Below, piece by piece: positions 3,692 to 13,054 of a stretch of DNA of 64,000 nt (position 1 is the first letter of the stretch; each line of letters starts with the position of its first letter). The notes under the pieces were generated by a model. The model was given only the letters and a program-made list of their open reading frames with translations, had not been told where the DNA came from and did not search any database. Where the stretch lies: the NCBI GenBank assembly GCA_947488755.1, contig CANLAD010000001.1, positions 198,247 through 262,246 on the forward strand. Reading direction: 5' to 3'. Origin of the DNA: an uncultured Erythrobacter sp. GTDB taxonomy: Bacteria; Pseudomonadota; Alphaproteobacteria; Sphingomonadales; Sphingomonadaceae. The position numbers and the translations under genes are program-made.

Positions 3692-5125
3692 TTACTCCGA
3701 TAACTCGCGCACGTCCACGAGATGTCCGGCGACTGCCGCGGCGGCAGCCATCGCCGGTGACATCAGATGCGTGCGCGCGCCCGGACCCTGTCGGCCGACG
3801 AAGTTGCGGTTGCTGGTTGAAGCGCAGCGTTCGCCCGGCGGCACCTTGTCGGGGTTCATGCCAAGACATGCCGAACAACCCGGCTCGCGCCATTCGAAAC
3901 CGGCCTGCTTGAACACCTCGTCGAGCCCTTCGTCCTCGGCCTGCCGTTTGACCAGCCCCGAGCCCGGCACGACGATCGCCCAGCGCACGCTTGGTGCCTT
4001 TGTGCGCCCCTTCAGTACCCGTGCTGCGGAGCGCAGATCCTCGATCCGGCTGTTGGTGCAGCTGCCGATAAAGACGTTCTCGACGGGGATGTCCGTCATC
4101 GCCGTGCCGGGGGAAAGCGCCATGTAATCAAGGCTTTTGCGCGCCGCATCCTGCTTGGCTTCATGCGGAAAATCGTCGGGCGAGGGCACCGCGCCGCTGA
4201 TCGGCACCACGTCCTCCGGACTGGTGCCCCAGGTGACGGTCGGCGCGATATCGGCAGCATCGATAGTCACGCTTTTGTCGAAAGTGGCGCCAGGGTCGGT
4301 GTTCAACGTCCGCCAGTATGCAACCGCCGCGTCCCAATCCGCGCCCTGCGGAGCCATAGGGCGGCCTTGCAGATAGGCAAACACGGTTTCATCGGGTGCA
4401 ATCAACCCGGCACGCGCGCCCGCCTCGATGCTCATATTGCACACGGTCAGGCGCTCCTCGACGCTCATCTTTTCGAACACCGGTCCGCGATATTCGATCA
4501 CGTGGCCCGTGCCGCCCGCCGCTCCGATTTGCCCGATGATGTGGAGGATCAGATCCTTGGCCGTGATGCCAGGACCAAGCACGCCTTCGACCCGCACCTC
4601 CATCGTCTTGGACTGCTGGAGCAGCAGCGTCTGCGTCGCCAGCACATGCTCGACCTCGCTGGTCCCGATCCCGAATGCGAGCGCGCCCAGCCCCCCGTGG
4701 CAGGCCGTGTGCGAATCTCCGCACACGATCGTGCTGCCCGGTAGCGAAAAGCCCTGTTCAGGGCCGACGACATGCACGATCCCCTGCTCGGCAGCGGTCG
4801 CGTCGATGTAGCGTATGCCGAAATCGCGCACGTTGCGTTCAAGCGCGTCAAGCTGCGCGGCGCTTTGGGGGTCGGCGATCGGCAGCCGCTCCCCGTCAGC
4901 GCCGACACGCGGCGTCGTCGGCAAATTATGATCGGGCACGGCGAGGGTCAGCTCGGGTCGCCGCACCTCGCGACCCGACAGCTGCAAAGCCTCGAACGCC
5001 TGAGGGCTCGTGACCTCGTGGACCAGATGGCGGTCGATATACACAAGCGCGGTCCCGTCCTCGCGGGTTTCGACGACATGGTCGTCCCAGATCTTCTGAT
5101 AGAGTGTGCGCGGGCGGCTGGCCAT
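3692..5125 (-). CDS. leuC: 3-isopropylmalate dehydratase large subunit
   Basis: 477 aa from [18 protein letters not shown]. Aconitase-family cluster ligands are present ([24 protein letters not shown]). Confidence 0.95.
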
Positions 5126-5711: not shown

Positions 5712-6500
5712 ATGACCCAAGCCGTTTATGCCCTCCCGACCCGCGCAACGCAGGGTGCTATCGGCATCATGCTCGCCGCGCTGATCGCGGGCGGGTGGTT
5801 GTTCATCCACTTCTACGGCATGTTCGTGTTCGAGTTGAGCTGGGCGAACCTCCCCGTCGCGCTGGCGATGGCAGTGGTGCAGTGCTGGCTGTCGGTCGGC
5901 GTGTTTATCGTCTGCCATGATGCGATGCACGGGAGCCTGGTCCCGGGGGCGAAACGGTTCAATTCCGCGATTGGCGCGGTGCTTCTGGCCTTATACGCAG
6001 GCTTCGCATGGCGCACTTTGCGCGACGCCCATTTCACGCATCACAAGATGTCGGGCCGCGCAGGCGATCCCGATTTCGACGAGCACAATCCGTCGAGTTT
6101 CCCGCGCTGGTACGCGACCTTCTTCCGGCGTTATTTCGGATGGCGCTCGCTGCTGTTCGTGCATACGATCGTGGGGCTGTACTGGTTCGTGTTCGACGTG
6201 CCGTTTGCGCAGATATTTGTCCTGTACGGCCTGCCCGCGCTGCTTTCCTCGCTCCAGCTGTTCTATTTCGGCACCTACCGCCCGCACCATCAGGCGGAGA
6301 CGCGACCCTTCGCGGACAAGCATAACACGCGATCCGACACGTTCGGCACGCTTGCAAGTCTCGCCACCTGCTTTCATTTCGGCTATCATCTGGAGCATCA
6401 TCGCAGGCCCGACGTGCCGTGGTGGGCACTGCCCGCCGCCAAGCGCGCAGGGGTGGGCGGACCAACGCGCGACCGACAGGAGAGGGAGATCGTCGCATGA
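5712..6500 (+). CDS. crtW: beta-carotene 4-ketolase
   Basis: 262 aa. It aligns by eye along its whole length with Paracoccus CrtW. Histidine boxes HDAMHG, HFTHH and HLEHH are present, plus PDFD and FGTYRPH. Confidence 0.9.
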   Translation: MTQAVYALPTRATQGAIGIMLAALIAGGWLFIHFYGMFVFELSWANLPVALAMAVVQCWLSVGVFIVCHDAMHGSLVPGAKRFNSAIGAVLLALYAGFAWRTLRDAHFTHHKMSGRAGDPDFDEHNPSSFPRWYATFFRRYFGWRSLLFVHTIVGLYWFVFDVPFAQIFVLYGLPALLSSLQLFYFGTYRPHHQAETRPFADKHNTRSDTFGTLASLATCFHFGYHLEHHRRPDVPWWALPAAKRAGVGGPTRDRQEREIVA

Positions 6501-6997
6501 CATGGGCAGAATGCATCGCCGTGACCCTCGCCGCGCTGATCGGCATGGAGCTCTTCGCCTGGTACGCGCACAAATACATCATGCACGGCTGGGGCTGGGG
6601 CTGGCACCGCGATCATCACGAACCGCACGACAATTATTTCGAGAAGAACGATCTGTTCGCCGTCGTCTTCGGCACGATCAACGCGACCATGTACATTTTC
6701 GGCGCGCTGTATTGGGATGCGCTGTGGTGGGCGGCGCTCGGCGTCAACCTCTACGGCGTGATCTACGCGCTCATCCATGACGGTCTGGTCCATCAGCGCT
6801 TCATGCGCTGGGTGCCCAAGAAGGGCTATGCCAAGCGGCTGGTTCAGGCGCACAAGCTGCACCACGCGACGATCGGCAAGGAAGGCGGCGTCAGCTTCGG
6901 CTTCGTTATCGCGCGCGATCCGGCGGTGCTGAAGGCGGAGCTGCGAGAGCAGGCGAAAAGCGGCACGGCGAAGGTCCGCGAAAGCGCACGGGCCTAG
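6497..6997 (+). CDS. crtZ: beta-carotene 3-hydroxylase
   Basis: 166 aa from ATG 6497, which overlaps the crtW stop (ATGA). Contains AWYAHKYIMHGWGWGWHRDHHEPH, HDGLVHQR and AHKLHHA. Confidence 0.9.
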   Translation: MTWAECIAVTLAALIGMELFAWYAHKYIMHGWGWGWHRDHHEPHDNYFEKNDLFAVVFGTINATMYIFGALYWDALWWAALGVNLYGVIYALIHDGLVHQRFMRWVPKKGYAKRLVQAHKLHHATIGKEGGVSFGFVIARDPAVLKAELREQAKSGTAKVRESARA

Positions 6998-7009
6998 CGC
7001 CGAACCGCG

Positions 7010-7357
7010 CTACTCTGCCCGCGTCCAGATCCAAGCGCCGACCAGTACAAGCGCCGCGACCGAAATCCACGCGTACGGGAAACCCAGTGTTGCCCACGTG
7101 AAGACCACTCCGGCGACCAGCGACAGGATAGAGATTACCTTCACACGCCGCGGAATGGCCCGCCGCTCGCGCCATTCCTTGACCTGCGGGCCAAAGGTCG
7201 GATGCTCGAGAATGCGGCGCTCCCATGCGGGGTTGCTGCGCGCAAAGCAGAACGCTGCGACCAGCAGGAACGGAACCGTCGGAATTATCGGCAGCGCCGC
7301 TCCGATTGCGGCGAAGGCGACGAACAGCAATCCGGCGGCGAGATAGAGCCGCCGCAC
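7010..7357 (-). CDS. ybaN: DUF454 inner-membrane protein (YbaN family)
   Basis: 115 aa; LPIIPTVPFLLVAAFCFARSNP...HPTFGPQVKEWRE is typical of YbaN. Confidence 0.8.
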   Translation of the reverse strand: MRRLYLAAGLLFVAFAAIGAALPIIPTVPFLLVAAFCFARSNPAWERRILEHPTFGPQVKEWRERRAIPRRVKVISILSLVAGVVFTWATLGFPYAWISVAALVLVGAWIWTRAE

Positions 7358-7360
7358 GGC

Positions 7361-7774
7361 TCAGGCATCCGCCAGCCGCGCCGCGTGCTCTTTTACCAGC
7401 GCGATCATGTTGGGCACACCTTGGGTACGGTTGCTCGATAGCTGGTTCTTGAGGTCAAACGGTTCGAGCGCGCCGGTCACGTCCATCCTCGCGACTTCGG
7501 GTGCAGGCTTGTCCTGCACGGCGGCGATGACCAGTGCGACGATGCCCTTGGTGATCGCAGCGTTGCTGTCGGCGAGGAAGTGCAGGCGGTCCGATGGTTC
7601 GCCAGCCGTGGGATAAACCCACACCGCCGCCGAACATCCGCGCACCAGAGTCGCATCGGTCTTGAGCGCATCGGGCATGGGGTCGAGCTCGCGGCCAAGC
7701 TCGATCAGCATCGAATAGCGCTCGTCGCCTTCGAGAAATTCGTACTCTTCGCGGATGTCGTCGAGGGATCGCAT
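7361..7774 (-). CDS. sufE: SufE-family cysteine desulfuration (sulfur acceptor) protein
   Basis: 137 aa; contains ERYSMLIELG...LVRGCSAAVWVY with the conserved acceptor Cys. Confidence 0.85.
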   Translation of the reverse strand: MRSLDDIREEYEFLEGDERYSMLIELGRELDPMPDALKTDATLVRGCSAAVWVYPTAGEPSDRLHFLADSNAAITKGIVALVIAAVQDKPAPEVARMDVTGALEPFDLKNQLSSNRTQGVPNMIALVKEHAARLADA

Positions 7775-7817
7775 GGCGCAGCATCTAGGGAGCGCGAGGG
7801 TCGAGGGGAAGGGGCTG

Positions 7818-8069
7818 TTACAGTTCGACCCCGCTTGCGATCGCTTCGAGCTTGCGGATGCGTTCCTTCAGATCGGCGATCTCGATCCTTGCCGATCCCG
7901 CAGGAGCACCGCCTTCGATCTCGCGCGGTTGATTCTGGCGCGCCTCGATCCGCTCCAACTCGCTGCGTTTCAATTCAAGCCACCCCTGCCATGCGCGCAG
8001 CAGGGCGAAGGCGACGACGCACAGGCCGACAAGGCAGGTTGCGGCGATCATCAAGGTGGGTTCGATCAC
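7818..8069 (-). CDS. Psp-zipper paralog 5 (PspB/PspC-tail-like single-pass membrane protein)
   Basis: 83 aa. The GTG start overlaps the paralog-4 stop (GTGA). TM helix TLMIAATCLVGLCVVAFALL. A shorter motif, IADLKERIRKLEAIASGVEL, sits at the C-terminus. Confidence 0.55.
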   Translation of the reverse strand: MIEPTLMIAATCLVGLCVVAFALLRAWQGWLELKRSELERIEARQNQPREIEGGAPAGSARIEIADLKERIRKLEAIASGVEL

Positions 8070-8431
8070 AGATTCTGCTCCTTCCCATCGTCTTCGGAGG
8101 TCAGCGCCGTCCCGCCGTCCTTGGCGGAGCCGTTGGGCACTCTAAGTGCTTCGATCTCGGCGGCAATCCGGGCACGCTCGCGCGCGTCCTCGCTGTTGGT
8201 GTCCGTCGCGATCCGCTCGAGCACTTGAAGCCGCTCGCGCAATTGTTCGATCTCGCGCCGGGTTTCCTCGGCCTCGGCTTCGGCACGGGCCTGCGTTTCC
8301 GGCGATATCTCGGGCTTGTTGAAGACCTCGTTCCCGCGATTGTCGGTCGTGATCCCTGCTCGCGCCTTGGCGAGTTGCACGATGCCCCAGACCACGATCG
8401 CGATGATGGCGACGAGAGCCCAGCCGCTCAT
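8066..8431 (-). CDS. Psp-zipper paralog 4 (PspB/PspC-tail-like single-pass membrane protein)
   Basis: 121 aa from ATG 8431, which overlaps the paralog-3 stop (TGATG); the ORF track starts one codon earlier at TTG 8434. TM helix GWALVAIIAIVVWGIVQLA. Motif LRERLQVLERIATDTNSEDARERARIAAEIEALR. Confidence 0.7.
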   Translation of the reverse strand: MSGWALVAIIAIVVWGIVQLAKARAGITTDNRGNEVFNKPEISPETQARAEAEAEETRREIEQLRERLQVLERIATDTNSEDARERARIAAEIEALRVPNGSAKDGGTALTSEDDGKEQNL

Positions 8432-8697
8432 CAAGCGGTCTCCCGATTTGTCTGGTTTGGTCCTTGACGCAGGCTCTCGATTTCCTCCGCCAGATCCGCC
8501 GATCGATCGGTCGCTATGCGCTCCAGAACGCGGACCCGGTCTTCAAGGTCGGCGGGTTTGCTGGGAGGCCGTGCCTTCTGCCCCTTCGCTGCGGATCGGC
8601 GGCGCAGCAGGAGATAACCGCCCGCGCCGCCGACCAGCGCAGCCAGAGCCGCGATCTGCAGGGCGTCCATGACGAGGCTCGTATCCGCGCTGAACAT
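8431..8697 (-). CDS. Psp-zipper paralog 3 (PspB/PspC-tail-like single-pass membrane protein)
   Basis: 88 aa. The ATG overlaps the paralog-2 stop (TGATG). TM helix ALQIAALAALVGGAGGYLLL. Motif LEDRVRVLERIATDRSADLAEEIESLR. Confidence 0.65.
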   Translation of the reverse strand: MFSADTSLVMDALQIAALAALVGGAGGYLLLRRRSAAKGQKARPPSKPADLEDRVRVLERIATDRSADLAEEIESLRQGPNQTNRETA

Positions 8698-9032
8698 CAG
8701 GCGGCGCCTTCTTCATTGCTGGTCGCCAGCGTCGGACGGCGCAGGTTCTCGATCTCGTGCCCCAGACCGTAACCGCTATCGGTGACGATCCGCTCCACGT
8801 TGGCGAGCCGGTCCTTGACCGAACCCAGCTCGGCGCGAAGCTCGGCGTTTTCCTGAGTGAGCAAAGCGACGCGCTGCTTCGCTTCATTGTCCGTCGTGGG
8901 CTTGATCTGCTGGCCCCACGACCCCTCCAGTGGATAGCCGTTCTTGACGCGAAGCCAGGTGGTGAAAACCCAGCCCGCGACGCCTGCAAGACCGACAGTC
9001 ATCAGCAATTCGGTGGTTACTAGTTCAAGCAT
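8697..9032 (-). CDS. Psp-zipper paralog 2 (PspB/PspC-tail-like single-pass membrane protein)
   Basis: 111 aa. The ATG overlaps the paralog-1 stop (TGATG). TM helix LLMTVGLAGVAGWVFTTWL. Motif VKDRLANVERIVTDSGYGLGHEIENLR. Confidence 0.7.
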   Translation of the reverse strand: MLELVTTELLMTVGLAGVAGWVFTTWLRVKNGYPLEGSWGQQIKPTTDNEAKQRVALLTQENAELRAELGSVKDRLANVERIVTDSGYGLGHEIENLRRPTLATSNEEGAA

Positions 9033-9346
9033 CAGACTTTCTCCTTGCTTGGCATGTCGAGTGGCACGCCTGCGCCCTGCTGTTCCACTTCGCGCGTGTC
9101 ACGCAGCGCTTCGATCTGGGTGGCGACGTCGTAACCGCGATCGGTGACGATGCGTTCTAGCACCTGCACGCGGTCCTCGAGCTGCTGGACCTGGTTGGCA
9201 TATTGCGCGGCTTTTTCGGCGGTGTGCTGTGCCGTCGCATCGGTTTTGATTTCGGCCATCTTCTGCTGGTGCTTAGCCCAGATGGCAACGACCGGTATGC
9301 TTACTCCGATGATCGGAATCATCAGCGCTAGAACTCCAGTGTCCAT
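9032..9346 (-). CDS. Psp-zipper paralog 1 (PspB/PspC-tail-like single-pass membrane protein)
   Basis: 104 aa. SD GAGGGGA lies upstream of ATG 9346, 26 nt after the pspC stop. TM helix GVLALMIPIIGVSIPVVAIWA. Motif LEDRVQVLERIVTDRGYDVATQIEALR. Confidence 0.7.
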   Translation of the reverse strand: MDTGVLALMIPIIGVSIPVVAIWAKHQQKMAEIKTDATAQHTAEKAAQYANQVQQLEDRVQVLERIVTDRGYDVATQIEALRDTREVEQQGAGVPLDMPSKEKV

Positions 9347-9372
9347 ATTATTTCCCCTCGTTTCGGCAGGCC

Positions 9373-9747
9373 TCAGCGCAGCTGTTCAATCTCGGCCGTC
9401 AGGCGCTGGTTGCTGCTGACGTAATAGGTTTCCACATCGGCCAGCCTGCGGTCGATATCGCGGAACCGGGCGCGGATTTCGCGGGCGGTGCGCTTCGGGC
9501 TTTGCCGCACGCTCTGCCAGTATTTCTGTTCGCCCGCGTCACGATAAAGATGCGGTGGCTTCTTGTTGAGTAGGAAGCCGGCGACGAAATAGGCGAGCAG
9601 CGGCCAGCCGAGCGCGATCGTGAGGCCGACGAGGCCGATCCGGATCCAGAACGCATCGACACCGGTATAGTCGGCAATCCCCGAACAGACGCCCATCAGC
9701 TTGGCATTGTGCTTGTCGCGGTAGAGGGTTGTGCGGGGGCTGTTCAT
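9373..9747 (-). CDS. pspC: envelope stress response membrane protein PspC
   Basis: 124 aa. The PspC domain is LYRDKHNAKLMGVCSGIADYTGVDAFWIRIGLV (compare E. coli GMVRGVCAGIANYLNVPVKLVRILVV). One TM helix. The zipper tail is IDRRLADVETYYVSSNQRLTAEIEQLR. The start overlaps the pspB stop (ATGA). Confidence 0.85.
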   Translation of the reverse strand: MNSPRTTLYRDKHNAKLMGVCSGIADYTGVDAFWIRIGLVGLTIALGWPLLAYFVAGFLLNKKPPHLYRDAGEQKYWQSVRQSPKRTAREIRARFRDIDRRLADVETYYVSSNQRLTAEIEQLR

Positions 9748-10052
9748 GCGGATGTTCCTTTCTTTTCGGCCATCAGCTTGTCGAGTTCGCGCAGCTGCTG
9801 GTTATCGGTTTCCTGGTCGGCCTGGAGGCGCTTGACCGGGGAGTAGGTCGGATCGTCGGCAGCGACGAGCCGCTCGACCGTGTCCATGCGTTCATCGAGC
9901 CGCTTGGCGAGGTTGTAGAGCTCTTCGAGCAGAACCTCGTCATCGGTGGTGATGGTCGCGGCGGTCTTCCATTTGGTGGTGTAGTGCAGGATCAGCCACG
10001 GCAAACCGATGAAAAGGGTGCCGACAATCAGCAGGGCGATAAATCCGTCCAT
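9744..10052 (-). CDS. pspB: envelope stress response membrane protein PspB
   Basis: 102 aa. FIGLPWLILHY compares with E. coli LPIWLWLHY. LAKRLDERMDTVERLVAADDP compares with E. coli AKRMRERIQALESILDAEHP. Confidence 0.8.
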   Translation of the reverse strand: MDGFIALLIVGTLFIGLPWLILHYTTKWKTAATITTDDEVLLEELYNLAKRLDERMDTVERLVAADDPTYSPVKRLQADQETDNQQLRELDKLMAEKKGTSA

Positions 10053-10055
10053 GGC

Positions 10056-10742
10056 TTATTCTCCCTTGTCCTGCTCGGGCTTGCCGAGCGCTTTTTTCAT
10101 CTGTTCGAGCTCGTCGTCGATCTGGTCCGACCCTTCGAGCGCGGCGATCTCGTCCGACAGGCTCGGCGGCGCGTCGGCTGCGATGTTCATCGCATCGGCA
10201 CGGCCCTCGGCGTAATCGACCCGGCGTTCGAGCTGGTCGAACCGGGACAGCGCCTCGTCGGTGCGTTCGGTGCTCATCAGCGTGCGCAGCTTGACGCGGT
10301 TTTCCGCGCTTTCGAGCCGCGCGGCGATTGCACTCTGGCGGCTGCGTGCCTCGCGCAGGCGATGCTGCAGCTTCTGGATGTCGTCCTCGTACGCGCGCAG
10401 CGCATCGTCGAGCACGGCGATTTCGGTCTTGAGCTGGTCGCCCATCTCCGCCGCCTTCTTCTTCTCGACCAGAGCCGCACGGGCGAGGTCTTCGCGATCC
10501 TTCGACAGCGCGAGCTGCGCCTTCTCGCCCCAGTCGGCCTGGAGCTTGTCGAGCTTGACCACGTGGCGGTGCATCTCTTTCTGGTCGGCAATGGTGCGCG
10601 CCGCGCTGGCGCGGACTTCGACCAGCGTTTCCTCCATTTCGAGGATGATCATGCGGATCATCTTCGTGGGATCGTCTGCCTTGTCGAGCATGTCGTTGAA
10701 ATTGGCTGCGATAATGTCGCGGGTGCGACTGAAAATGCCCAT
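10056..10742 (-). CDS. pspA: phage shock protein A
   Basis: 228 aa from ATG 10742, with GGAG about 10 nt upstream. MGIFSRTRDIIAANFNDMLDKADDPTKMIRMIILEMEETLVEVR is nearly colinear with E. coli PspA ([44 protein letters not shown]). The ORF track extends 72 codons further upstream (see findings). Confidence 0.9.
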   Translation of the reverse strand: MGIFSRTRDIIAANFNDMLDKADDPTKMIRMIILEMEETLVEVRASAARTIADQKEMHRHVVKLDKLQADWGEKAQLALSKDREDLARAALVEKKKAAEMGDQLKTEIAVLDDALRAYEDDIQKLQHRLREARSRQSAIAARLESAENRVKLRTLMSTERTDEALSRFDQLERRVDYAEGRADAMNIAADAPPSLSDEIAALEGSDQIDDELEQMKKALGKPEQDKGE

Positions 10743-10966
10743 GAAGGCTACTCCGTCGAGAAAAGGGTTGGTGTCGGATTGGCGGGAAGTTTTTTCTTCG
10801 CTGCGACGCTCGCTGCCCTGAGCGCGACCCTGTGTCCGCGACTGGGTCGGCGTGGGGCTGCGACGAAGCGCCTCGATTTCCTCATCCAGCCGCGAAAGCG
10901 CGCGTTTCGGCGGGCTCTTGCGCTCGGGGCCGAGGGGGTCGTTATCCTGTTTGCTCACGACCCGTC

Positions 10967-11134
10967 TCAGGCCAGTTCAAGCGTGAAGGCGGGTTGGTCG
11001 ATCGTCGTCGCCACTCCAACCATCGGAGCATCGAGCGTCATCTGGGTCGACAATGCGATCATCGCTGTCATCGCGGCAATGCTGGCGAGCGAAGCGCGGT
11101 CCAGCTTGGTAGCGAAGAAGTTGCGGTTGTACAT
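10967..11134 (-). CDS. small hydrophobic protein, first ORF downstream of the sigma54 psp promoter (hypothetical, 55 aa)
   Basis: ATG 11134 is preceded by SD GAGAGGA. Sequence: MYNRNFFATKLDRASLASIAAMTAMIALSTQMTLDAPMVGVATTIDQPAFTLELA. G/C at codon position 3 is about 78 percent by my hand count. It lies about 40 nt downstream of the -12 element. Confidence 0.5.
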   Translation of the reverse strand: MYNRNFFATKLDRASLASIAAMTAMIALSTQMTLDAPMVGVATTIDQPAFTLELA

Positions 11135-11179
11135 GATCGGTCCTCTCAACAGGGTCGGTGCGTGTATTGCCCTTCATTC

Positions 11180-11195
11180 TGCAACCAGCGTGCCA
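11180..11195 (-). promoter_or_regulatory. sigma54 (-24/-12) promoter of the psp operon
   Basis: The minus strand reads TGGCACGCTGGTTGCA, a full match to TGGCAC-N5-TTGCA. It is about 100 bp from the divergent pspF start, and GCAAT/ATTGC repeats (11211-11275) lie between them as possible activator sites. Confidence 0.8.
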
Positions 11196-11295
11196 AACCT
11201 GAGATGCCCCGCAATTCCGCGATATTACCGGCTCACAGTCATTATCGCAATGGGATCTATTGCCAAACATTGGGATTTTTCACTATAACGTGGTC

Positions 11296-12342
11296 ATGGA
11301 GCGCGAAAACCAGTTCATCGGGCAATCCGGGGCCTTTCTCGATGCAGTCGAGCGCACCTCTAAAGCTGCGCCGTTGAGCCGTCCCGTACTCGTCATCGGC
11401 GAGCGCGGCACCGGCAAGGAACTGATCGCCGAGCGTCTCCACCGCCTCTCGACCCGCTGGGACGAGCCGTTGGTGACGATGAACTGCGCGGCTTTGCCCG
11501 AAACGCTGATCGAAGCCGAGCTGTTCGGGCACGAGGCCGGAGCCTTTACCGGTGCTACCAAATCGCGCGCCGGTCGGTTCGAGGAAGCCGACAAGGGGAC
11601 GTTATTTCTCGACGAACTGGGCACTTTGTCGATGGGGGCGCAGGAGCGGCTGTTGCGTGCGGTCGAATACGGCGAGGTAACGCGAATCGGTGCATCGCGA
11701 CCGATCCGGGTCGACGTGCGGATCGTCGCCGCCACGAATGACGACCTGCCCGCGCTCGCCAAGAGCGGCGAATTTCGCGCCGACCTGCTCGACCGCCTGA
11801 GCTTTGAAGTCATCACCCTGCCGCCGCTGCGCGTGCGCGAAGGCGACGTCGGCGTGCTGGCGGAGCATTTCGCGCGGCGCATGGCGGCCGAGCTGGACTG
11901 GCCCGCCTGGCCCGGTTTTGCATCGCATGTAATGGACAGCCTCGAAAACCATCCCTGGCCGGGCAATGTGCGCGAGCTTCGCAATGTGGTCGAGCGCGCG
12001 GTCTATCGCTGGGACGATCCCGAAACGCCGATCGCGCATGTCCAGTTCGACCCCTTCGATAGTCCGTGGAAGCCGAGCAAGCCTTCGCATCGCCGCTCCG
12101 ATTCTCCCGCACCCGCTGCCAACGCTCCCGAAGCGGCGGACTTCGCATCAACCGCACCGTGCTTTGATGAGATCGAAGACCTGCGCGCCGCGGTTGATGC
12201 GCACGAACGCGCCATCGTCGAGCACGCGCTGGGCAAGCATCGCTGGAACCAGCGCCAGACCGCCAAGGCGCTGGGCCTCAGCTACGATCAGCTGCGCCAT
12301 TGCATCAAGAAACACGCGCTGATGGAGGAAACGGCGGACTAG
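11296..12342 (+). CDS. pspF: sigma54-dependent transcriptional activator PspF
   Basis: 348 aa from MERENQFIGQSG. There is no N-terminal receiver or sensor domain. Colinear with E. coli PspF: PVLVIGERGTGKELIAERLH, the GAFTGA loop (GHEAGAFTGA), GTLFLDELG, WPGNVRELRNVVERAVYR, and a C-terminal HTH (QRQTAKALGLSYDQLRHCIKKH). Confidence 0.9.
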   Translation: MERENQFIGQSGAFLDAVERTSKAAPLSRPVLVIGERGTGKELIAERLHRLSTRWDEPLVTMNCAALPETLIEAELFGHEAGAFTGATKSRAGRFEEADKGTLFLDELGTLSMGAQERLLRAVEYGEVTRIGASRPIRVDVRIVAATNDDLPALAKSGEFRADLLDRLSFEVITLPPLRVREGDVGVLAEHFARRMAAELDWPAWPGFASHVMDSLENHPWPGNVRELRNVVERAVYRWDDPETPIAHVQFDPFDSPWKPSKPSHRRSDSPAPAANAPEAADFASTAPCFDEIEDLRAAVDAHERAIVEHALGKHRWNQRQTAKALGLSYDQLRHCIKKHALMEETAD

Positions 12343-12472
12343 CCTCTTGCGCTTCGCGGCGCGCTCGCCTACTTCCCTCATATCACGACATCGTCGAGAT
12401 TTCGAAGCGCTGGCGCCGCGAGGGGCCGGCCCCAATCGGCTTTGTCACACGAATGCTTTAAGCAAGGACCGC

Positions 12473-13054
12473 ATGACCGATATCGCGCGCATCACCGAAG
12501 TTATCGAACCTGAAGCGCAGGCGCTGGGTTTCGAGCTGGTGCGCGTGAAGATGATGCCGTCCGAAGCGGGTGACGGCGGGCAGGCGCTGCAGATCATGGC
12601 GGAAGATCCCGCGACCGGGCAGCTTGTGATCGAGCAATGCGCGCAGCTGTCGCGCCGCGTTTCCGATGCGATCGACTCTCGCGAGGAATCTGGCGAAACC
12701 CTGATTGAGGGGGCCTACCACCTCGAAGTGTCCTCGCCCGGCATCGACCGTCCGCTGACGCGCGACAAGGACTTTGCCCGATGGGCCGGGCACGAAGCGC
12801 GGATCGTCATGGTCAAGGGTTTTGAAGGCCAGCGAACCTATACCGGCGAGCTCAAGGGCATGGAGGACGGTCTGGTCGTTATCGACAATCCCGAAGCTGG
12901 CGAGGCGCGCCTCCCAAAGGACCAGATCCACAACGCGAAGCTCATCCTGACCGATGCGCTGATCGCGGCCACGCAACCGATCGACACCACCGGTGCCGAC
13001 GACATCGTCGAAGATACTGAAACAGACGACCAAGAAGAAAAGGCAGACAACTGA
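12473..13054 (+). CDS. rimP: ribosome maturation factor RimP
   Basis: 193 aa from MTDIARITEVIEPEAQALGFELVRV. The stop overlaps the nusA ATG (TGATG). Confidence 0.9.
   Translation: MTDIARITEVIEPEAQALGFELVRVKMMPSEAGDGGQALQIMAEDPATGQLVIEQCAQLSRRVSDAIDSREESGETLIEGAYHLEVSSPGIDRPLTRDKDFARWAGHEARIVMVKGFEGQRTYTGELKGMEDGLVVIDNPEAGEARLPKDQIHNAKLILTDALIAATQPIDTTGADDIVEDTETDDQEEKADN

Follow-up and report, generated by a model that had tools for sequence, protein, structure and literature searches.

Here, we describe an array of five small genes, P1 to P5, that extends the psp operon in a stretch of 64,000 nucleotides (nt) of DNA from an uncultured Erythrobacter sp. (contig CANLAD010000001.1; hereafter the window). 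We provide comparative evidence that the five genes likely encode old, diversified paralogues with a zipper-like helix of the PspB/PspC-tail type, which are single-pass inner-membrane proteins and belong to a PspF/sigma-54 unit. Downstream of the promoter, the minus strand carries X-pspA-pspB-pspC-P1-P2-P3-P4-P5-sufE, with pspF in divergent orientation (Table 1). The products of pspA, pspB, pspC and pspF all exceed the curated NCBIfam/Pfam cut-offs, and PspF has the Pfam domains Sigma54_activat and HTH_8. The pspF open reading frame (ORF) opens at a TTG; its likely start is the ATG at 11296. An original prediction, made from the DNA letters, had placed five minus-strand ORFs of 104, 111, 88, 121 and 83 amino acids (aa) behind pspC. 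All five were located as claimed, each of the quoted peptide motifs was found verbatim in its ORF, and the junctions read as given, i.e., ATGA between pspB and pspC, TGATG at P1/P2, P2/P3 and P3/P4, and GTGA at P4/P5. The span 7818-10052 that had been assigned to the five genes does contain all of them; it also takes in pspB and pspC, and the true span is 7818-9346. P1 does not overlap pspC; the two genes are 26 nt apart, and this spacer contains GAGGGGA as the ribosome-binding site (Shine-Dalgarno). P4 appears in the mechanical ORF list with a TTG start one codon earlier, which gives 122 aa.

Table 1. Features of the psp locus, in window positions (TM, transmembrane helix; M1 and M2, sequence motifs defined in the text)
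Feature	Positions	Strand	Remarks
pspF, sigma-54 enhancer-binding activator	11260..12342	+	TIGR02974 483.6 bits vs cut-off 443.55
sigma-54 (-24/-12) promoter of the psp operon	11180..11195	-	TGGCACGCTGGTTGCA; between divergent pspF and ORF X
ORF X, 55-aa hydrophobic protein	10967..11134	-	ATG with GAGAGGA ribosome-binding site; in the promoter-pspA interval
pspA, 300 aa, GTG start (long form)	10056..10958	-	TIGR02977 277.5 bits vs cut-off 242.95
M2 motif in the PspA extension	10842..10895	-	SRLDEEIEALRRSPTPTQ; RLDxEIEALR type
pspB, 102 aa	9744..10052	-	TM + M1 (RLDERMDTVERLV); TIGR02976 85.5 bits vs cut-off 51.7; PF06667 75 bits
pspC, 124 aa	9373..9747	-	TIGR02978 124.9 bits vs cut-off 104; PF04024 64.4 bits
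P1, 104 aa, orthogroup C	9032..9346	-	TM + M1 (LEDRVQVLERIVTD) + M2 (QIEALR) + GVPL tail
P2, 111 aa, orthogroup D	8697..9032	-	TM + conserved KNGYPLEGSWG juxtamembrane box + M1 + M2
P3, 88 aa, orthogroup E	8431..8697	-	accessory member, 0-3 copies per locus
P4, 121 aa from ATG, orthogroup A	8066..8431	-	TM + M1 + insert + M2 (IAAEIEALR)
P5, 83 aa, GTG start, orthogroup B	7818..8069	-	TM + M1-only C-terminus (ADLKERIRKLEAIASGVEL)
sufE	7361..7774	-	3' of P5

The array is a regular part of this operon well beyond the window. A scan of one genome per species with the P1-P4 alignment as query gave more than 548 confirmed loci, from which we took the best 80 and, together with two metagenomic relatives and the window, called ORFs in a survey set of 83 loci; loci in which pspC as well as sufE was present, 79 in number, are referred to as complete. 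The layout pspF<-X-pspA-pspB-pspC-[array]-sufE was present in 79 of 79 complete, species-level Sphingomonadales loci, with three to nine array genes each (3 copies in 2 loci, 4 in 21, 5 in 23, 6 in 18, 7 in 8, 8 in 6 and 9 in 1). The spacer between pspC and the first array gene measured 17-39 nt in 72 of 75 loci. Among 360 within-array junctions, 180 were 4-nt and 117 were 1-nt overlaps, which sums to 297 overlap-coupled junctions (82%). All of P1-P5 are annotated as genes in an NCBI genome. A P1-P5 profile recovered at least 7,937 homologous clusters at 90% identity, all of them 'hypothetical protein' and free of Pfam domains, the named ones being from Erythrobacter, Qipengyuania, Parerythrobacter and Sphingopyxis; P5 homologues formed 4,409 such clusters, every one unnamed and likewise without Pfam domain. 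A HMMER search of 1.84 billion cluster representatives returned 2,214 matches at an expectation value (E) <=1e-3 and 299 at E<=1e-10. The family is thus modest in size, and its named or placed members in the other searches all belong to the Sphingomonadales.

Selection acts on these genes at the protein level. Ratios of non-synonymous to synonymous substitution rates (dN/dS; Nei-Gojobori, window against seven relatives) were 0.10-0.29 for P1, 0.13-0.31 for P2, 0.14-0.43 for P4 and 0.10-0.27 for P5, similar to the 0.05-0.33 of the core psp genes in the same genome pairs; P3 gave 0.19-0.52, with less certain orthology. All of these figures are approximate, since most pairs have a dS close to or greater than 1. 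In the same pairs (L018, L001 and others of the surveyed loci), dS itself was higher for the array genes (~0.9-1.8) than for pspA/B/C and sufE (~0.35-1.4, mostly <1), for which weaker codon bias, recombination among paralogues or a method artefact are possible reasons. Some features could be taken to mean that the ORFs are spurious or decaying, functionless duplicates: at 90% identity every one of the five window proteins clusters alone, the array proteins diverge faster than PspA/B/C (P1 is 72% and PspA 94% identical to the counterpart in L018), and copy number varies from three to nine. We reject this reading, which is extremely improbable, because of the conservation, coupling and dN/dS data. 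The ratios lie well under 1 (~0.1-0.4), orthogroups are kept across Sphingomonadales families, most within-array junctions (82%) are overlap-coupled, homologues fill more than 7,900 clusters, and ~435 array genes contain one clear frameshift remnant, in a metagenome-assembled genome. The claim of five genuine paralogues that are under selection and coupled in translation is therefore upheld by the 79-locus conservation, the overlaps and the low dN/dS, and the relatives failed to show decay. DNA repeats within the array are confined to one 56-nt motif-coding stretch of 68-71% identity, which argues for old paralogues and against recent tandem duplication. No Rfam family matched in 7000-12500.

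The array is also built from distinct kinds of proteins in a fixed order. Louvain clustering of 435 array proteins resolved six orthogroups, of which C includes P1, D includes P2, E includes P3, A includes P4 and B includes P5, and F has no member in the window. The window order is C-D-E-A-B, with C-D-A-B as the conserved core; the commonest orders are C-D-A-B (18 loci), C-D-E-A-B (12, including the window), C-F-D-E-A-B (8) and C-F-D-A-B (7). Group C occurs in 76 of 83 loci and group A in 80, always penultimate, and group B is a single-copy gene in 81 loci and invariably the last of the array. Variation is concentrated in groups E and F: E was found in 46 of the 83 loci, and P3, its window member, is missing from the close relative L001. 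Group F was found in 42 loci (L003-L082, e.g., L018 6324-6677) and carries a P2-like juxtamembrane box, NNWIRAKHGY-LEDEWGG, which is common to F and D. The groups also occur outside the Erythrobacteraceae, where variants include the F-D-C-A-B array of Sphingopyxis macrogoltabida, which has short spacers instead of overlaps, and an F-A-B array, named 'hypothetical protein' in RefSeq, on an 880-kb replicon of Sphingomonas parapaucimobilis, the single match in a tblastn search of P2 against plasmids. The existence of distinct and positionally fixed orthogroups argues for specialised roles rather than simple dosage.

Occasional irregular units were observed. The frameshift remnant, at L060 ~4835-4903, is the M2 end of a P2-type gene that runs on in another frame (…GAEIDTLRD…). 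Proteins of ~200 aa in some assemblies consist of two array units head to tail (D+A, E+A or C+C; e.g., L086 5001-5621 and proteins P0058, P0066, P0049 and P0025), and the loss of one base at a TGATG or ATGA junction would yield such fusions. They may be assembly errors or pseudogenes, as the second TM helix would invert the topology. Among the representative-library matches, odd long or fused ones resemble chimeras or wrongly called ORFs.

The array can be placed in the PspF/sigma-54 operon, which upholds the original view of it as an extension of the pspABC operon. The promoter TGGCACGCTGGTTGCA is the sole zero-mismatch match to TGGCAC-N5-TTGCW in the 64-kb window, and a minus-strand terminator search up to the end of sufE gave nothing convincing, only weak pattern matches of 5-6 pairs inside coding sequence; the first good terminator-like site lies at 7333-7354, 3' of sufE. 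Because the sigma-54 promoter is shared and the genes are translationally coupled, co-production with PspABC under envelope stress and at fixed ratios is expected. The same transcription unit might be read as a functional tie of the array to sufE, i.e., to sulfur transfer for Fe-S clusters and not to Psp, since sufE is found 3' of the array in 79 of 79 complete loci and the terminator follows only after it. However, in RNA-seq data of Zymomonas mobilis, which belongs to the Sphingomonadales, transcript levels of sufE (ZMO1067) drop where those of pspA-C increase (PMC8645129 supplement). P5 and sufE are moreover separated by a 43-nt untranslated gap, as opposed to the overlap-coupled array, Sphingomonas has an unrelated 222-aa gene between array and sufE, and the array proteins are like Psp proteins and unlike Suf. 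A functional tie to sufE is hence very unlikely, and its opposite movement to pspA-C in Zymomonas indicates that the link is probably one of conserved neighbourhood and not of co-regulation.

All six orthogroups share a simple predicted architecture. In each, the most hydrophobic 19-mer by hydropathy opens at residues 2-9, and lysine and arginine residues number ~0 before the TM helix and 2.4-4.3 in the next 15 residues, a distribution from which a single-pass topology with the N-terminus out and the C-terminus in is predicted by the positive-inside rule. AlphaFold2 modelled P1 (70 homologues) as a continuous helix over residues 3-91, with a mean predicted local distance difference test (pLDDT) of 75, a pLDDT of ~90 over the first of two motifs, and a predicted template modelling score of 0.32. 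The first motif, M1 (LxDRVxVLERIVTD), is found in PspB and every array group and is degenerate in the PspC tail. The second, M2 (EIExLR), closes the PspC sequence and also occurs in groups C, F, D, E and A; PspB and P5 are without it. In the window, the PspC domain is followed by a C-terminal tail in which M1, as the divergent VETYYVS, and M2 (RLTAEIEQLR) occur. Written as patterns, M1 reads L-x-[DE]-R-[VLI]-x-x-[LV]-E-[RA]-I-[VA]-[TS] and is present in all of P1-P5, and M2 reads [EQ]-I-E-x-L-R and is present in P1-P4. Regular expressions for M1 and for strict M2 were defined post hoc, with 14,157 unrelated ORFs of the same loci as background. The M1 expression matched 81 of 81 PspB, 126 of 132 P1-like and 70 of 81 P5 proteins versus 22 of the 14,157 unrelated ORFs, and the strict M2 expression matched none of the latter. 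These counts and the profile matches given next lie far outside what chance would produce.

Profile comparisons relate the array to PspB and, more closely, to the PspC tail. A hidden Markov model (HMM) of the array proteins, run against 15,065 stop-to-stop ORFs of the 83 loci, matched 443 array ORFs, 75 PspC and one PspB, on the operon strand in every case and with ~23 bits for the PspC ORF in 75 loci. In hhalign comparisons, groups C, F, D, E and A were related to each other with probabilities of 98-99.9%, and P5 (group B) to A with 95% and to E with 94%. Against the PspC tail, group D reached 94.9% (E 4e-8), E 82% and F 65%, and the local PspC-tail HMM matched 51 of 79 group D members; against 80 local PspB, group C reached 56%, F 37% and A 25%, with D, E and B at <=7%. 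The original prediction that the five proteins are PspB/PspC-tail-like was borne out in part by the curated models. P1 matched PspB (TIGR02976, E 9.5e-6, 25.8 bits, cut-off 51.7; Pfam PspB, 19.4 bits, cut-off 25.6) and positions 66-121 of TIGR02978, i.e., the PspC tail (E 4.7e-4), and P2 matched positions 71-121 of the same model (E 1e-3), all below the curated cut-offs. P2-P5 had no match to a PspB model (PF06667 or TIGR02976), none of P1-P5 matched the PspC domain proper (PF04024), and PspD and rhodanese PspE models gave no P1-P5 match at E<=1 in Pfam or NCBIfam. When 149 members were compared with the curated libraries, 54 matched TIGR02978, exclusively at tail positions, 30 matched TIGR02976 (E<=0.01; best 2.8e-10) and 10 Pfam PspB. 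The next most frequent model, an IS1182 transposase, was matched weakly by 16 of 149 (best E 8.6e-4), and thus no unrelated family recurs comparably. Likeness to PspB and the PspC tail is the sole consistent database similarity of the array in curated-library scans and hhalign. On the basis of these profile comparisons we label P1-P5 PspB/PspC-tail-type domain proteins that are closer to the PspC tail and do not claim formal PspB membership.

Both Psp proteins resemble the array in some respects and differ from it in others. Canonical PspB of E. coli and Yersinia (PF06667, TIGR02976) resembles the array proteins in its size of ~75-100 aa, its N-terminal TM helix with N-out/C-in topology, its cytoplasmic amphipathic helix with an M1-type motif (RxxERIxxLExI) and its location in a PspF-dependent operon. 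In contrast to PspB, P1-P5 remain under every curated cut-off and P1-P4 add M2, a motif missing from canonical PspB; the window operon, besides, already has its own bona fide PspB. P1-P4 repeat the M1-plus-M2 arrangement of the PspC C-terminal domain, in line with TIGR02978 matches over only its last ~50 positions, whereas the array proteins are without PF04024 and use a simple N-terminal TM helix as anchor. P1-P4 could thus be viewed as the PspC zipper domain hung on a simple membrane anchor, and P5 as a PspB-like, M1-only version of it.

Several points weigh against the proposed kinship and placement. The AlphaFold2 model, of a monomer only, is one featureless helix. The curated PspB and PspC thresholds are attained by none of the five proteins, P3 and P5 are without any match, and the HMM built from 80 local PspB matches just 3 of 435 array proteins. 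Short coiled-coil-like helices can produce spurious profile similarity, and the dN/dS ratios carry the uncertainty given above. Some of these points would also suit autonomous small coiled-coil membrane proteins, e.g., stabilisers or scaffolds, that are co-expressed with PspA/B/C without binding them and whose likeness to PspB and PspC reflects generic heptads. Such proteins would account for curated matches that all stay below threshold, for the weak matches of some members to bZIP, ZapB and other coiled-coil families, for hhalign probabilities of no more than 56% with local PspB, and for proteins of 860-1776 aa with 10-14 matched stretches that the representative-library search also gave. 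Generic heptads do not, however, explain the shared non-heptad residues (ER-I-V-T-D and E-I-E-x-L-R), which lie at the same distance from the C-terminus in PspC, or the absence of strict M2 from all 14,157 unrelated ORFs. PspB (30/149) and PspC (54/149) are the only families matched by many members, the placement directly 3' of pspC is invariable across ~80 species, and independent work with sensitive profiles classed the array as PspB domains (PMC11237479). We consider autonomous coiled-coil proteins unlikely and regard diversified PspB/PspC-tail-type paralogues within the PspF/sigma-54 unit as the best overall explanation.

The existence of the array has already been published. The original prediction knew of no multi-paralogue array of this type, and this novelty claim falls because Ravi et al. 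2024 (mSystems 9:e00847-23; bioRxiv 2020; PMC11237479) catalogued the layout gene for gene, with the entry 'PspB duplicates in the operon' in their Table S3 for Erythrobacter litoralis (AOL22920.1 context). The E. litoralis architecture consists of a divergent pspF, X, pspA, pspB, pspC with a PspB-like tail, and five single-TM PspB-domain genes; it is gene-for-gene identical to that of the window, and the genus is the same or closely related. Like it, the window and the 79 surveyed loci have at least two further single-TM PspB-domain genes on the same strand. Under 'Diversity of the pspFABC operon', Ravi et al. also described PspC as a fusion with a divergent PspB at its C-terminus (PMC11237479) and assigned the PspB domain to the array proteins by their own sensitive profiles. 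Their treatment comprises one sentence and one table row, without orthogroups, copy-number survey, PspA-extension motif or function. What is left of interest beyond that catalogue entry is the function, the orthogroup structure and the motif shared with the PspA extension. The evolutionary survey of Huvet et al. 2011 makes no mention of such arrays, and a full-text literature search for Psp work in Sphingomonadales yielded nothing beyond Ravi et al. 2024.

What the array proteins might do can be approached from the enterobacterial model, in which the partner of the PspC C-terminal zipper is PspB in the OFF state but PspA in the ON state, and a PspBC membrane complex activates the response under stress. 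The zipper domain is a known PspA/PspB-binding element (Flores-Kim & Darwin 2015/2016; Jovanovic et al. 2010): PspA is bound through this domain of PspC once the system is ON (PMC5596341), and contact with PspA depends on the PspC leucine zipper (PMC3068692). For the array, the original proposal of hetero-oligomerisation and of a tuned release of PspA from PspF is plausible because the PspC zipper is such an element. With the N-terminus outward, the long amphipathic helix of each array protein would face the cytoplasm. Made together with PspABC on envelope stress, the array proteins could provide additional docking sites for PspA at the membrane and/or be partners of PspB/PspC, and the threshold of the response, its gain or its capacity for membrane recruitment would then depend on them. 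By analogy with PspC, we tentatively propose such a docking or partner-switching role, specialised by orthogroup, as one possibility that falls somewhat short of even odds. A functional analogue is LiaI of Bacillus subtilis, a small membrane anchor that is co-induced with the PspA homologue LiaH and thought to recruit LiaH to the membrane (PMC11237479). The array proteins are likewise small membrane proteins expected to be co-induced with a PspA-family protein, yet LiaI shows no sequence kinship to them, is polytopic (LiaI-LiaF-TM domain) and is under two-component and not sigma-54/PspF control. Mechanistic knowledge of the Psp response comes almost entirely from E. coli and Yersinia, in which a single PspB and a single PspC shift PspA from PspF to the membrane and back. 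An entire alphaproteobacterial order, to which Zymomonas with its ethanol- and inhibitor-responsive psp genes belongs, keeps three to nine specialised copies of the PspB/PspC zipper. If these copies bind PspA, PspB or PspC, they would offer a natural system for studying how partner-switching sets the threshold and capacity of the response.

PspA itself carries a further link to the array. The TIGR02977 match covers residues 73-291 of the long-form PspA, upstream of whose canonical start (MGIFSRTRDII at 10742) an extension of ~72 aa (~70 codons; 10743-10958, minus strand) is encoded and kept in 76 loci. With a GGAG 9 nt ahead of the canonical ATG, PspA may be produced in a long and a short form. 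The extension contains the blocks PLGPER, SRLD[AE]EIEALRRSPTPTQ and NPFLDGVAF, of which the middle block is M2; the strict M2 expression matched 76 of 80 PspA ORFs. Codon-position entropy over the M2 block was 0.71/0.54/1.33 bits (77 loci), a protein-coding signature that points to selection on the peptide. In hhalign comparisons the extension reached 83% with the PspC tail and 92.5% with group F. The extension is absent from PspA of Sphingopyxis, and a homologue search with it returned 20 partial proteins only, too few to map its spread. These sequence patterns suggest that M2 is a functional short motif common to PspA, PspC and the array, and its presence in a translated PspA extension is possibly a new observation. 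It is tempting to go further and view M2 (RL-x-x-EIE-x-LR) as an undescribed docking or competition code, in which the array, the PspC tail and the PspA extension found in Erythrobacteraceae would compete for one common site or pair with it, and the graded set of three to nine membrane-anchored paralogues would govern the share of PspA at the membrane and the share left on PspF. This reading of the motif is doubtful and rather less probable than a docking role as such; if true, it would amount to a regulatory logic unknown from the enterobacterial model.

ORF X, between the promoter and pspA, is a second conserved component of the operon. Its product, which begins MYNRNFFATKLDRASLASIAAMTAMIALSTQM, had no Pfam match; most of the 83 loci have the gene at this place ahead of pspA, and it is also conserved in Sphingopyxis and Sphingomonas. 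It is the 'X' of Table S3 of Ravi et al. and probably corresponds to ZMO1062 of Zymomonas, which was labelled pspD in one paper.

The flank beyond sufE (5712-6997, plus strand, and 7010-7357, minus strand) contains a pair of desaturase-type (fatty-acid) and hydroxylase-type ORFs with a CrtW/CrtZ-like look, whose counterparts in L001 match PF00487 and PF04116. A DUF454 membrane protein (PF04304, E 6e-33) belongs to the same flank, and this neighbourhood is kept in relatives.

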